Source of the DNA: a virus
Taxonomy: Duplodnaviria; Heunggongvirae; Uroviricota; Caudoviricetes
Length of the DNA: 64,000 nt
Virus record (IMG/VR): IMGVR_UViG_646311923_000012
Direction: 5' to 3' (one strand)
A program made the position numbers. Shown piece by piece: positions 1 to 6,000 of the stretch. The first letter of the stretch is position 1; each line of letters begins with the position of its first letter.

Positions 1-3000
1 CGGTCGGAAATAATCCCACGGCGTGCCCAGGCGCTGAAATGGCTCGCCCTGTCCTGTGACGTCCAGGTGGCTGAGCTGTCACGCCATTTCGAACCGTAAT
101 ATCCGATACCCGGAATGTCCGGGTCTTCTTCCGGTTTGTTCGTCGGCACATTCACCCCGTTCTCATCGGTCATGAACGGTACGAAATGGATATTCTTTTC
201 CGTTTTGTTTTTATAGCTGCCGTACACCGTCTGGTACGTGGATTCGTTCTTCTGCTTCCAGAAATACGTCGTATCTCCACATATCCAGGGAACACCGCCA
301 GCAGAGCCACCGACGCACTGACCTGCCATATCCGCCAGGTCTGCACGGAATTTATCAACCAGCGCACCAAACTGTGCTGCGTGATTTGCCGGCGTACCGC
401 CAAAATCAAATTCCCCCTGCATCCACACCACGGCAAACAGCACATTTTTCGGATTCTTCTTCAGTGCTGCTTTTGTTCGACCGATAAGGTCCTTATACAG
501 CGGCTTGTCCACACCCCAGCGGGTTGAATTCTCCGAGGCACCACTCGCGTCACTGTATGTGCCATCGGCTCCGGTGGTGAACGCTGAACCACCACGACAG
601 CACGGAACCAGCAGAATGCCCGCATTCGCCGGTATAAACGGCAGCAATTTTTTGGCGATATGCAGCCCTTGCCCCACGGTTCCGTACTGCCCCTTTGACA
701 GGTCCGCTTTCGGATGGTTAAGGCGGCTCATGTCCTGCACATCATGCAGACAATGGTCCGCCGGAATGATGTCGTTATATTTACAGGCGACACCGCCCGG
801 TGTCACCGTACTGCGACGCGCCAGCTGCTTAATGCGCGGGTCCGGACGGTCATATGTCTCCGGCAGCGGAAGGCCTTCACCATATGCCATGCTGTTTGAC
901 TGCCCCGCCAGAACCACAACAAAGTAATACTCCGGGTCTCTGGTGGCGCTGATTACTGTGCCTTCTCCATCCGACGGCTTCACCAACACAGGTGTGGTGA
1001 CATCACCTTCCGCCGCAATGGCCTGCATCAGAGTATAAGGCGTGATGGCCACCGGGCTGCCAAATGGCTGCCACCCCTCCTTCAGTTTTTGTGTCAGCTT
1101 TTCCGCAAGATCTGACGGCGACGCCGCCCTGACAACATCATAATGTTTAATCGACATCGAATTTCTCCCGTGTACAGGAACAGAGTTAAAAAGCCGGAAC
1201 CGGAATCAAATTACAGGATGGCCATCTGCCAGTGGCTGGTCGTAAAAAAAGGCCACGCCATGCGCAGCCGGAAATAAAGGGATAACGATGATAGTTTGAG
1301 AAAAACAGAAACAACACTTTTGTGGCAAAGCATGGTGCCGGGTGCCTCCCGGTGAATTCAGTATCAGCACCTGAATCCGCGATTATCCCATATACCTGGT
1401 TGCTGATCGCCCCTCCGCACAGGGGGATTCACCATGCAGAAGTGTTTTTAATAAACAGCAAACAAAAAAATCAAGCATTATGCAGGCTGTTTCTTTTTAT
1501 CACCGGCCACAGCAATACCACAATGCCGCAGACCAGCACCCCATCCGCCAGCACCGACATGATTCTGCTGGTGAAATCCACCATCACCACCAGAAACAGC
1601 AGGAGTGCAGCCACAGCCAGGCGCAGTTTTACCGTCACAGGTGATTCTCCAGACGAAGACCCAGAACACCGGCAATCTCTTCCAGCACCTTGCGCTCTTC
1701 CGGCTCAATTTCGCCGTCTGCCTCCGCAATGGCCACCGCCACATCCAGCACATCTTCCGCTTCACGCGTATCGTGTTTCACATCCTCAATCTCGCGTAAC
1801 GCGGCACGACGACCAATTTTAAAATTGGTATCCAGCTGACCGATAATAGTTGCGCTAATCGCATTAATTTCCGAGGTAAACGCAGACAACGCAGGCTGAT
1901 TACGTAAGACCTGTTCGATCTTCGCTTTCTCGGATGCCTCGCATTCACCATCTGCATAGGCCACCAGGTATGCAGCGTTAATCACCGCCTGTGCCAGATC
2001 GCGTTTCTCAAACTTTTTAATTTCCGCTGCCGCTCTGCGGGTTTTCTTTTTGAAGATTCCAAACATCGTGACGTTCCTTTGGGTGGGTGAGCCAACGCCC
2101 GGGAGCGATCTGCCCACAGAGAAAGTCACACTGACCACTCCGTAAGCTCACCCCCGAAAGGCTCTGTGGTTGATATGCGCCGGGCGTGGCGCAGATACAA
2201 AAAAGGCCCGCCGAAGCGAGCCTGGAAAATAAGTGTGGCGCGTTGTAGTGGAGTCGAACCACTGACCGATTGCTTAGAAGGCAATTGCTCTGTCCGACTG
2301 AGCTAACAACGCATGATGCTGATAATGGACCGCCATCGGGGACTTGAACCCCGCGCAGCCAGCTTCGAAGGCTGGCGCTCTGTCCCGATGAGCTAATGGC
2401 GGTATGTGATATGGTGGCCCTTGCTGGATTTGAACCAGCGACCTGGCGATTATGAGTCGCTCGCTCTCACCACTGAGCTAAAGGGCCGAGCCAAAAAATA
2501 ATAATCAGATGAAAATCAATAATCAAGCCCTTGCCTGGATACATATCTGTCTGGCGGGAAGCCATAATAGCGGTGAAATACAGAAATAAAGTAGGACCTG
2601 CTTGAATAACCGCATTTTTCTGCTATAGCCTGTCCATATCCATGCCGGGAACATAACATATTTACAGCAACACGCATCCGCTCTTCCAGCAACAAGCGAC
2701 TGAACATGCCCCCTTCATTTTTCAGTTTTGTCTTTAACAAACTCTCACTCATATGCAACTGTAGAGCAATCGCACCAAGCGTCCAGCTTGCTGATATATC
2801 TGTCTGAATTATCGCCCTGACTTTGGCACTTATGCTGGATAAACATCCACTTAAAAACAATGACATCCGTTCATCTGTTTCAAACAGAGACAGGCAGGCC
2901 ATCATAAGAAACATATCCGTGGCCTCTCCGGAAAATCCCTGGCTGGTAATTAAAGCCGCAGCCAACGCAGGATTGTTGGGTTCCAGCAACAGGTAAAGCG

Positions 3001-6000
3001 GAATGTCAGTCAGACGAGTCCTCGTCAGCTTATGCTGACTTTCCAGATATTGACTTACGACGGATTCGCTTATATCGACAATTTTAACTTTGCCATAATG
3101 CATAAGGAAAAGCTCCCTGATGCATTTGGTGGCCAGAACGACTGAGCCTGGCTTAAGTGACAACGTATCCTTTTCAAGAAAAATATTAATTGGGGAGCAA
3201 ACCATGATAACTGAACAGACAACAGCCATTATAATTTTACTTTCATTAGCAATTGGTTAGCTCAATTATAGCCCCAAAAGGTAAATTATCATCAACACAT
3301 AAGCAAAGGACTGACAGGTGTCGCCCCCCCACCAGCCGCCCATTCACCACAAATAAAAAGCCTTCAGGACTGAAGGCGTCTGTAACAACCGCACTGATAG
3401 TCTGCCAGACCCGCCATAACAAGCTGGGTCAGTATTAACTGGCAGCGTTCGCGTGAAAGGTAAGTATTCTGCGCAACCTCCCCGACTGTCGCCGGTTCGG
3501 TAACGCTTAATTCATTAAACACCACTCTGGCGGTTTCGGTCATATCCTGCTGTTTCAGCATGTCTTTTTCCCTTTTTCGGTTAACGTGACACACCAATAA
3601 CTCTTGTCGAAAAAGCCAGCAAGCTGAAAGAACGGTATTAATAACCACCAGCGAATTTATTGCGCTGCTGTATATTACGGACACAAAAAAACCACCTTCC
3701 GGTGGCTTCCTTGTGCGAAAAAACTTGCATTTCGCCTCGCGATACAGCTTTGCGAAGCTTACAGGAATTCAAGCTGTTTCTGCGTAAAAAAGCAAGCTTT
3801 TTTTATCGAAATGAATCGTGCATAGGTACATAAAGCATGTGTTCAGCCACGGCTAACCAACCTGCAATACGTTTCTCACATGTGCTGAAACACCATTCCG
3901 GGTGAGTACGATTTAAACATTCTGCCATTTTTCTCTTACTCATTCCCCGTCCTTCGTACCTTTGCCGGAGAATATTGATTAGCCCGGGATATTCCCCAAG
4001 CACCTCACTGATAACGCGATCAATAATCAACGCCTCTGTGTCTGTACAATGTGACAACCAGCTCTTCTGCTTCCCTCTGGTCATATCCCGAAAAAATGCC
4101 TCAAGTTCCGGTTTTTCCAGCCCGGATTTCTTCATGCTGCGTAAAACCTCATTAACTGCTGTTTTCGTCAGCTTTTTCGAAACCAGTAACCGGTTAAACA
4201 TATTTCCGGATTTACCCCCACCGATATACGACCACCGCCCCCACATCCGTAATTTCCCCTGGATCCAGACTGCTTCCAGCGTGTTCAGGCGTAAATGTTC
4301 GCCGCTTTTGCCTGTAATTTCCGGATATATCATATTTACGCTCACTCACTCTCAATTTTGTAAATCTTCACACCCAGCCGTCCACCAGATACTGGCTGAC
4401 CGCGCACAATATTGATTTCATCAAACTGCTCGTCATCAATGAGCACTTCCGCATGCGTCAGCGCATCCAGCGGTGCTTTCAGAATGTTGTCCAGGTCACG
4501 GCGGCGCTTATCCGGTGGCTCTGCAATCACCTTTATCGCCAGCCTTCCGGACAGGCTTAATTTCAGCCGCTGCTGGCGAACAATAAGCGCCACAGCCCGG
4601 CGATAACGCTTTCCCTCCTCCGAGATAAAATATGTGCTGCCACGGCGTCGCCAGTAAGTGTTCACCGTCGGCGGGTAAGGTAAAACCAAATCTATGAGCA
4701 TCAGTCACCTCTTTTACCCAAGCACGCCAGTTGCAAAGGCGTGATCAAGAAAACGAAAAATTAAATCAACCTGAGAACCATGCTTTTCTTCGAACGCCAG
4801 CGGATCCGCATGAAGCTCGTTGTGATGCTCCCGACACAGCGGTAGCGTGAAAATATCGTGAGATTTTGTCCCCATTCCCCCCTGACCATGACCAATCAGG
4901 TGATGCGGATCGTCAGCAGGCTTACCACAACACGCACACGGCTGTGTCTTCACCCAGTGCGTGTATTTCTCGTTAACCCAGCGGCGACGTTTAGGTCGTT
5001 TCATGAAAGATTCCGGAGACTCAGGATCAACGGCAATGCTGACCACCGTCTTTTCCTGTGGCGGTTTTTGCTGGTGAGCGTGAGGCAGCGGCGCAAGATT
5101 TTTTGTGCGCTGCTTCAGTATGCTGGTGGCGGTCTGCTCTCCCGGTACGATGTCGCTTTCACGGTACATTGAGCGGATTTTTTCCGCACGCAACCCCAGC
5201 GAACGACGTAATACCGCTTCCGGTAGCGCGTCCGCCACCTGATTGCGGACCGCCCACCAGGATAATTCAGCCAGAGATAATTCCCGTTCCTGTGCACCAC
5301 TTATTGCGTGACGTATGACGTCAATCATCCAGGCTGTCAGATTTTGTTGAGCAAGCTGCCCGAGTGATTCGGATGTCTGGTCGCGCAGCTGGTTGTCGCA
5401 GTGCCAGCACAACACCATTGCGCCGGTACCATAACGGTGAATGACGGTTTCGCTGTGATGATAATCGCCGTGTGGCCACTGGCAGGATTTCACGTGACGT
5501 AATAACCAGTCAGACAGTGCACCAGCGCCACCCGCAGCACGGATCACCCGCTCATCGCTGAAAAATGGCAGTAGTGATTTATCTTCCGCCAGCGGCTGGT
5601 GAACGGCAGGTACAACCCCGGACGGCAGATTACGCATGCTTTTCGGTTCCGGCTCCACCAGTACCCGGGTATTGTGGAATACCGGCATGGATTCACGACC
5701 CGGCTTAACGATCACCAGCCCGAGTTCCGGTACCAGAACAGGTCGAAGTAATACCCGCACGTTACCTCCAGATGCGTTGCTGGAATGTGCGGGACGGACG
5801 CGGCGGGCGTTCGGAATAAAGGAGCCTGACGTAGATTATCCAGTGACGGTAGTCGAGGCTAAGGGCTTTCTTAAACTCATACCCACGTCTGCGGTAGTTA
5901 TGAATCAGCCATTCGGCCTGTTCTTCAGTGCAGGGATCGTGCTGATACCAGTCATATTTGAATGTGTGAGAACACCGCCCTTGCCTGCTGGCAGGGGCGA

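Follow-up and report, generated by a model that had tools for sequence, protein, structure and literature searches.

Late-control modules of two tandem lambdoid prophages in an enterohaemorrhagic-type Escherichia coli are mosaic copies of one block

Why does a single stretch of viral DNA hold the same late-control genes twice, nearly identical in some parts and strongly diverged in others? The question is raised by 64,000 nucleotides of IMG/VR virus record IMGVR_UViG_646311923_000012 (Caudoviricetes), the whole of which we call the window. A first-pass annotation, made by a model from the sequence, had placed a module of about 5.8 kb at 1-5760 and again at 49056-55100, listing nanS, a TerB-like gene, three tRNAs, an AraC-type regulator, a small open reading frame (ORF), the terminator tR', the antiterminator gene Q, rusA and a ydfU-like gene, and had put the resemblance down to mosaic recombination between co-resident prophages. 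Here the left module, which begins at window position 1 and belongs to prophage 1, is copy A, and the right module, in prophage 2, is copy B. We consider it highly probable that these are two separate lambdoid prophages, each with its own allele of the standard nin-to-late block, and that their similarity reflects common descent and module shuffling in the phage pool.

We compared the window with itself by BLAST and aligned the two copies globally to obtain block identities. The principal self-match pairs 1021-5776 with 50344-55113 (91.5% identity over 4781 bp, bit score 6536, E = 0), and a weaker continuation within nanS pairs 406-911 with 49771-50276 at 77.9% identity; both are same-strand, colinear and well above chance. 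Gene order and strand (minus) are identical in the two copies, copy B running from 55097 to 48632; the colinear repeat that had been described is present and its breakpoints could be mapped. The global alignment carries the similarity to window position 1, where the edge cuts copy A, and on the right side DNA similarity tails off at ~5800 in copy A and ~55130 in copy B. Beyond it, further short colinear patches at 6856-6940, 7636-7934, 10772-11469, 13427-13476 and 15071-15222 match parts of 56322-62458 in the self-BLAST; colinearity between the two prophages is thus broader and broken, and no stretch of it is longer than the flagged block. Some details of the first-pass annotation needed amendment. 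Its gene list is right apart from the tRNA count of copy B, but had left out the STnc100 small RNA (sRNA) and the DUF3927 gene. Of its limits, position 1 is where the window truncates copy A, and the end of copy B at 49056 is a stop created by a 2-bp deletion; the intact gene would reach 48632.

The copies differ at more than 400 positions, and the breakpoints in identity fall, abruptly, at functional borders (Table 1). A 2.2-kb core running from TerB through the tRNA genes to AraC is near-identical outside one 99-bp patch, as had been judged by eye. nanS and Q are more diverged, as had been supposed, and DUF968, the YdfU-like gene that had been grouped with them, is intermediate. The right edge of the near-identical core lies just downstream of tR', and Q, its promoter and its terminator therefore appear to differ together as one specificity unit. 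The cargo cassette downstream of that unit has the appearance of a single shared allele that has recently spread, with Q-pR'-tR' and nanS present as different alleles (68-74%) and rusA and DUF968 as intermediates (~90%) carrying short conversion-like patches. To judge from these alignments, the block pattern is the classic signature of modular, mosaic lambdoid phage evolution.

Gene identities come from matches to Pfam, PHROGs and Rfam, from ARAGORN calls, and from near-identical genomes annotated in RefSeq. Both copies contain a Q-family gene: the proteins match Pfam DUF1133 at 1e-110 (copy A) and 3e-105 (copy B), and they pass the Phage_antitermQ cut-off of 26 with 35.2 and 33.2 bits. Between Q and the small ORF, a putative pR' with weak hexamers and a tR'-like hairpin together predict a leader RNA of ~76 nt in both copies. 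Permissive Rfam thresholds applied to these Q-to-small-ORF intergenic regions returned only a weak, non-significant isrK match at 53013-53086 in copy B, which we rejected as a sign of a named sRNA family (19.8 bits against 50, a terminator-driven match with no counterpart in copy A). The 65-aa ORF, which in copy A is ended by a hairpin and T-run at 3360-3377, possibly encodes a winged-helix protein, its Pfam TrmB match being weak (0.003) and below cut-off. RusA and DUF968 lie upstream of Q. On the same strand, copy B is followed by holin, lysozyme, terminase and head genes, annotated via DNA 99.9% identical to the window; the lysis and structural genes downstream of copy A are found in relatives and fall off-window here. 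With nin genes upstream and lysis and structural genes downstream, the module has the surroundings of a lambdoid Q-dependent late-control region, and it is probably one.

Table 1. Features of the two module copies, in the order in which they would be transcribed, with block identities between the copies (aa, amino acids; letters A and B mark the copy to which evidence belongs).
Feature	Copy A	Copy B	Evidence	Identity, A and B
90-aa ORF, syntenic, DNA homology over	5762-6034 (-)	55099-55371	both phrog_1212	50% DNA, 33% protein
DUF968, YdfU-like, HNH-nuclease family	4714-5760 (-)	54048-55097 (-)	A: Pfam DUF968 8e-77, phrog_96; B: Pfam, annotation, protein alignment	90.0% DNA
RusA Holliday-junction resolvase	4342-4701 (-)	53676-54035 (-)	A: Pfam RusA 1.8e-16; B: Pfam, annotation, protein alignment	89.4% DNA, 89% aa
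Q-type antiterminator (DUF1133)	3803-4333 (-), 176 aa	53113-53667 (-), 184 aa	A: Pfam DUF1133, phrog_753 'anti-termination protein Q-like'; B: Pfam, annotation, protein alignment	73.9% DNA
pR'/tR' region	3621-3802			68.5% DNA
Putative pR'	3795-3767 (-)	53123-53095 (-)	read from sequence, promoter assignment inferred; A: TTGCTT-17 nt-TTGAAT; B: TTGCTT-17 nt-TTCAAT	
tR'-like intrinsic terminator	~3716-3681 (-)	~53034-53011 (-)	RNAfold; A: stem-loop and T7 run; B: GCCCGC-TTTTT-GCGGG and T8	
65-aa ORF	3364-3561 (-)	52690-52887 (-)	A: phrog_331 8e-37; B: annotation, protein alignment	96.9% aa
AraC-type regulator, Psr-like	2516-3229 (-), 237 aa	51841-52554 (-)	A: Pfam HTH_AraC 2.4e-13, HTH_18 5.8e-10; B: identical to WP_000301797.1	
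TerB-tRNA-AraC core (2.2 kb), without patch	1421-3620			99.1% DNA, 19 differences
tRNA(CAU), RefSeq tRNA-Ile (A); tRNA(CAU)/Ile2 (B)	2412-2487 (-)	51737-51812 (-)	A: ARAGORN, Rfam, RefSeq; B: ARAGORN, Rfam	
tRNA-Arg(UCG)	2326-2402 (-)		ARAGORN, Rfam, RefSeq	
Degenerate tRNA-like relic		51637-51736 (-)	alignment	
Middle-tRNA patch (99 bp)	2313-2411			65.7% DNA
tRNA-Arg(UCU)	2236-2312 (-)	51560-51636 (-)	A: ARAGORN, Rfam, RefSeq; B: ARAGORN, Rfam	
TerB family, TciA-like, 143 aa	1635-2066 (-)	50959-51390 (-)	A: Pfam TerB 2.9e-16, phrog_632 1.7e-69; B: RefSeq annotation of 100% identical DNA, protein alignment	99.3% aa
DUF3927, TciB-like small membrane protein, 55 aa	1471-1638 (-)	50795-50962 (-)	A: Pfam PF13064 4e-17, phrog_1470 4e-30; B: RefSeq annotation of 100% identical DNA, protein alignment	96.4% aa
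STnc100-family sRNA homologue	1294-1466 (-)	50618-50790 (-)	Rfam RF02076, gathering score 47; A: 104.7 bits; B: 100.8 bits	
Block between nanS and core	1158-1420			94.7% DNA
nanS-p, SASA-family sialate O-acetylesterase	1-1157 (-), 5' part, N-terminal 385 codons	48632-50480 (-)	A: RefSeq of 99.7-100% identical loci; B: Pfam DUF1737 and SASA domains	68.5% DNA (5' part), 69% aa

At the downstream end of the cassette, each STnc100 homologue is followed by a terminator-like hairpin, at 1251-1269 in copy A (scan and fold) and 50575-50593 in copy B (scan). The homologues lie between DUF3927 and nanS and overlap a RefSeq-annotated pseudogene fragment on the opposite strand. STnc100 and Pas sRNAs adjoin the prophage sialate esterase, and homologous recombination around the esterase gene has been proposed (bioRxiv 10.64898/2026.05.13.724894). 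nanS-p of copy A starts at 1157 and runs off position 1. In copy B the gene is frameshifted by the 2-bp deletion, which lies near 49086 relative to O103:H2 strain 129 and leaves ORFs 49056-50480 and 48632-49111; strain 129 is otherwise identical over 8 kb of this region, and the deletion reflects either true pseudogene formation or an error in sequencing.

The regulators within the core would connect the module to host control. Each has an AraC-type helix-turn-helix domain at the C-terminus (residues 155-230, Pfam), the two proteins are 98.7% identical with 3 substitutions, and a promoter scan placed a sigma-70-like match at 3265-3292, ahead of the copy A gene. The copy B gene is identical in DNA to the strain 129 locus, whose coding sequence is WP_000301797.1, and the gene for this protein is the sole AraC-type gene in EDL933 1,846,000-1,921,000, 75 kb within OI-57. 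Reviews locate psrB (z2104) in OI-57 (PMC10877973, PMC8565820). Linked to z2104 by this position, the copy B regulator is very probably PsrB, and copy A would be its 3-substitution variant. PsrA, PsrB and PatE are reported to activate gadE and hdeA and to repress type III secretion indirectly (PMC10877973, PMC8565820). Like the window's regulators, these proteins of enterohaemorrhagic E. coli (EHEC) O157:H7 have a C-terminal AraC helix-turn-helix and a prophage location beside effector loci; the PsrB candidate in OI-57 is identical to the copy B protein, and the copy A protein is 3 residues off. Reviews place psrA (z1789) in OI-50, where we found no AraC-type gene between Q and TerB in the current RefSeq EDL933 sequence (1,626,000-1,675,900). 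The TerB gene of EDL933 OI-50 is a pseudogene in that annotation.

The module copies sit in two lambdoid prophages arranged in tandem. Prophage 1 comprises copy A, an early region and an integrase at ~19658-20677; prophage 2 begins with tail fibres, continues with head and lysis genes, and closes with copy B, an early region and, at its end, an IS66 element. The integrase, espV'/tccP2, and then the tail genes of prophage 2 follow one another, and the two prophages of the first-pass annotation are accordingly distinct. The tccP2 effector gene (21811-22563) and the partial espV lie between the prophage 1 integrase and the prophage 2 tail fibres, and 141-bp proline-rich repeats in tccP2 account for self-matches at 22066-22542. 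Structured RNAs elsewhere in the window are DicF at 16226-16277 (+) in the prophage 1 early region, the sok antitoxin RNA at 56107-56281 (-) beside a hok gene in prophage 2, and an ALIL frameshifting pseudoknot at 63603-63719 (-), within an insertion sequence that lies at the right edge of the window.

The window comes from an EHEC-type E. coli, whose nearest relatives among complete genomes are O103:H2, O45:H2, O26-like or related Shiga-toxin-producing strains. Two separate loci of strain 129 are colinear with the window, the first with positions 1-36002 (99.1%) and the second with 40001-62365 (99.9%). Prophage 2 itself is a patchwork that switches at least four times between sequences resembling two strain-129 prophages, X and Y; these donor-like prophages lie at 1.13-1.17 Mb and 2.55-2.60 Mb in that strain. 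The resemblance is to X at 20-25.5 kb and 34.5-37 kb, and to Y at 30.5-32 kb and beyond 37 kb. The last switch between X and Y, near 37 kb, falls in tail and head genes, outside the flagged module. In strains 129, EL361 and UTAK-6, the two modules are ~1.4 Mb apart and inverted. What sets the genome of the window apart from these three is a rearrangement bounded by prophages, with a mis-join as the less probable cause.

The wider comparisons bear directly on where the similarity came from. Copy A is 100% identical to strain 07_3636 over 1158-4333 and 99.95-100% identical to strain 129, and copy B is 100% identical to strain 129 over 50481-55113. An O157:H7 prophage whose proteins have the same RefSeq WP accessions matches copy B at 98.96-99.86% between the core and DUF968. 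Because each copy has a 100%-identical counterpart elsewhere, the mosaic mostly predates this genome and derives from the phage pool. The mosaicism that had been claimed is thus real, but the comparisons do not show exchange between these two copies, which had been offered as its source. There is one candidate for local exchange. At 5491-5590, in the 5' part of DUF968 in copy A, ~20 sites differ from the strain 129 and 07_3636 orthologues and most of them match copy B, a conversion-like patch of ~100 bp in which 5 sites match neither pattern. The best match to it in any complete genome is 97.7%, and no donor was identified among them. Such a patch suggests that small-scale exchange does occur in the lineage.

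Could the near-identical 2.2-kb core, and some of the patches, nevertheless be the product of recent gene conversion between these two co-resident prophages? A core at 99.1% between flanks at 68-74% would fit, and so would a DUF968 patch that leaves its own orthologues for the copy B pattern and finds no closer match elsewhere, as would the patchwork structure of prophage 2 with its repeated switches. The identity of both cores to copies in other strains, however, means that neither has been reshaped in this genome, and 19 single-nucleotide polymorphisms and the whole middle-tRNA patch still separate them. High identity is moreover the population norm for this core, which is 97-100% conserved across serotypes, O157:H7 included, and relatives carry 8-12 module copies per genome. 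The 5 sites of the DUF968 patch that match neither pattern imply that its donor need not be copy B. We regard gene conversion between the two as unlikely. Tandem duplication of one prophage in this chromosome is scarcely credible: it would explain why the copies share an orientation and lie about one prophage length apart, but it predicts uniform divergence, and what we observe is 9% overall and 26-32% in Q, pR'/tR' and nanS. The early regions share short patches only, with different replication and immunity genes, and each copy has its own identical relatives elsewhere. On the divergence pattern we rejected duplication.

An assembly artefact, in which the juxtaposition or one of the copies is a chimeric join or a mis-resolved repeat, was a further rival. 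Donor-like prophages that are 99.8-100% identical at ~28-30.5 kb and 33-34.5 kb could mislead an assembler, the halves of the window are ~1.4 Mb apart and in opposite orientation in 129, EL361 and UTAK-6, no complete genome has the prophage 2 combination above 99.2%, and nanS bears a frameshifting 2-bp deletion. Set against this, more than 400 differences between the copies mean that neither is a duplicated read pile, both long segments are colinear with strain 129 loci, several independent genomes match the 34.5-39.5 kb interval, the site of the last switch, at 100% identity, and genuine inversions between prophages of this kind have been amply documented (PMC8743559). We therefore think an artefact very improbable. 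Some points do weigh against two separate prophages, each with its own allele of the late-control block, as we have described them. The Q function of the DUF1133 proteins is taken from family membership; the pR' hexamers match the consensus weakly and were absent from the output of the consensus scan, so that this promoter is an assignment from sequence; tR' was assigned from a hairpin and T-run only; and the PsrB identification derives from a sole AraC-type gene in 75 kb of an OI-57 that spans ~80 kb. The combination of segments in prophage 2 was not found above 99.2% in 5,426 complete E. coli genomes, and the 49-kb spacing and direct orientation are without independent confirmation; this search used three queries spanning 5.7-49.5 kb, and the 99.2% ceiling belongs to the segment crossing the tail-to-head switch.

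If the two modules are separate alleles of one late-control block, their order along the minus strand (DUF968, RusA, Q, pR'/tR', 65-aa ORF, AraC, tRNAs, TciA/TciB, STnc100, NanS-p, holin, lysozyme) suggests how each would operate. By analogy with lambda, Q would modify RNA polymerase at pR' on induction, and the modified polymerase would read through tR' and through the hairpin terminators that follow the small ORF, the tRNAs and STnc100, into nanS, the lysis genes and the structural genes. During lysogeny, promoters of their own would drive the AraC regulator and the tRNAs as lysogenic-conversion cargo, and the regulators may act, as published work describes for PsrA, PsrB and PatE, on gadE, hdeA and type III secretion.

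The tRNA cluster is the one place where the core itself breaks down. Copy A has three intact tRNA genes (CAU, UCG and UCU), as in the ileZ-argN-argO cluster; they score 58-72 bits against Rfam tRNA, a promoter-like site at 2498-2526 lies beside them and a strong terminator follows at 2204-2223. A literature search for ileZ, argN and argO together returned no match. Copy B, for which three tRNAs had also been claimed, has two only, Arg-UCU and Ile2-CAU, and its middle element is degenerate: it received no tRNA call from ARAGORN, even at relaxed thresholds, nor from Rfam at E<=1. In place of tRNA-Arg(UCG) stands an 80-nt relic with a cloverleaf-like fold. Its acceptor, D and T stems and its 3' CCA are retained, whereas a different anticodon arm has taken the place of the original and the T-loop reads CCGGGT, without TTC. 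This allele family is not peculiar to the window, occurring in ~1,740 of the 5,426 complete genomes, some of them from lineages outside EHEC (ST131, for example), and making up 66 of 121 matches in IMG/VR viral contigs. Among its alleles the T-loop forms a decay series of TTCAAGT, TTCGGGT, GTCGGGT/GGCGGGT and CCGGGT.

We read the 80-nt element as an old, hitch-hiking tRNA relic, the graded T-loop variants pointing to stepwise decay. Alternatively, it might be a conserved RNA of tRNA shape that has its own role, such as a processing scaffold or decoy. RNAfold predictions for the allele variants gave inconsistent anticodon-arm folds, with no compensatory changes and no covariation, so a functional tRNA-like RNA is unsupported, and we judge this alternative improbable.

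How unusual is the arrangement? Of the complete genomes, 4,679 and 4,759 contain matches to parts of the module, in up to 18-19 places per genome, and 489 genomes have the AraC-containing core at close to its full length; in other lineages the AraC slot holds a DNA methyltransferase. Close known counterparts are the CP-933O region of EDL933 OI-57 and the equivalent prophages of other EHEC strains. OI-57, like the window, consists of two tandem lambdoid prophages with one module each, at 1,855,482-1,861,737 and 1,902,732-1,909,197, on the same strand and ~47 kb apart. The order is shared as well: DUF968, RusA, DUF1133 Q, small ORF, AraC or methylase, tRNA-Ile, relic, tRNA-Arg, TerB, DUF3927, esterase and holin. 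OI-57 encodes proteins identical to the copy A Q (WP_000640048.1), to the copy B Q (WP_000640035.1), small ORF (WP_000917763.1) and AraC regulator (WP_000301797.1), and to the 90-aa ORF adjoining DUF968. It differs in that its first module has a DNA methyltransferase in place of AraC and is without the TerB-DUF3927 pair, whereas both modules of the window have AraC, and in its neighbouring effector cargo, which in the window is tccP2/espV'.

A second counterpart is the late region of Shiga toxin (Stx)-converting lambdoid phages such as 933W, in which Q, pR' and tR' are followed by ileZ-argN-argO, stx, nanS-p and the lysis genes. The layout downstream of Q is the same as in the window, the tRNA set is that of copy A, and the esterase likewise precedes the holin. 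Unlike these phages, the window is without stx, its cargo slot is filled by AraC and TciA/TciB, and its Q is of the DUF1133 type. Parts of the module are shared by 377 phage records, mostly Stx-converting phages, but no sequenced phage record covers at least 80% of it; this version of the module is therefore mainly a prophage form.

The first-pass annotation had called the repeat a substrate for inversion or deletion. The copies are direct repeats 49.3 kb apart, and recombination between them would therefore delete, duplicate or excise a hybrid prophage-length unit and would not invert it, so that the first half of that suggestion fails for this arrangement and the second stands. RecA- or phage-recombinase-mediated exchange between the copies could thus lead to deletion or excision of one hybrid unit of prophage length. 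The longest exact runs are 653 bp (1644-2296), 398 bp and 277 bp; 653 bp would be enough for RecA, yet the repeat looks to be a modest substrate. Rearrangement-prone prophage repeats in O157:H7 were defined as at least 5 kb long with >=98% identity, and most of them lie in inverted orientation on either side of the terminus (Fitzgerald et al., PMC8743559). Those repeats are likewise shared by lambdoid prophages, but the pair in the window is direct and adjacent at 4.8 kb, and its 4781 bp at 91.5%, with 2.2 kb only at 97.6-99.1%, fall short of those values. Inversion between these prophage families is evidently possible, judging by the inverted modules of 129, EL361 and UTAK-6.

That co-resident lambdoid prophages of EHEC repeat their late-control modules in mosaic form is ordinary, already known, textbook knowledge, and every component here belongs to a described family (Q, phage tRNAs, Psr-type AraC, TciA/TciB, STnc100 and NanS-p). 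The finding adds nothing new to phage biology; its value lies in annotation and in assembly quality control, and it flags a region in which short-read assemblies collapse. For the strain itself the consequences are more specific. Its prophage arrangement differs from that of the closest complete genomes, which is useful for strain typing and comparison, and it appears to carry two near-identical copies of a PsrB-type regulator, a type of protein that bears on acid resistance and type III secretion.

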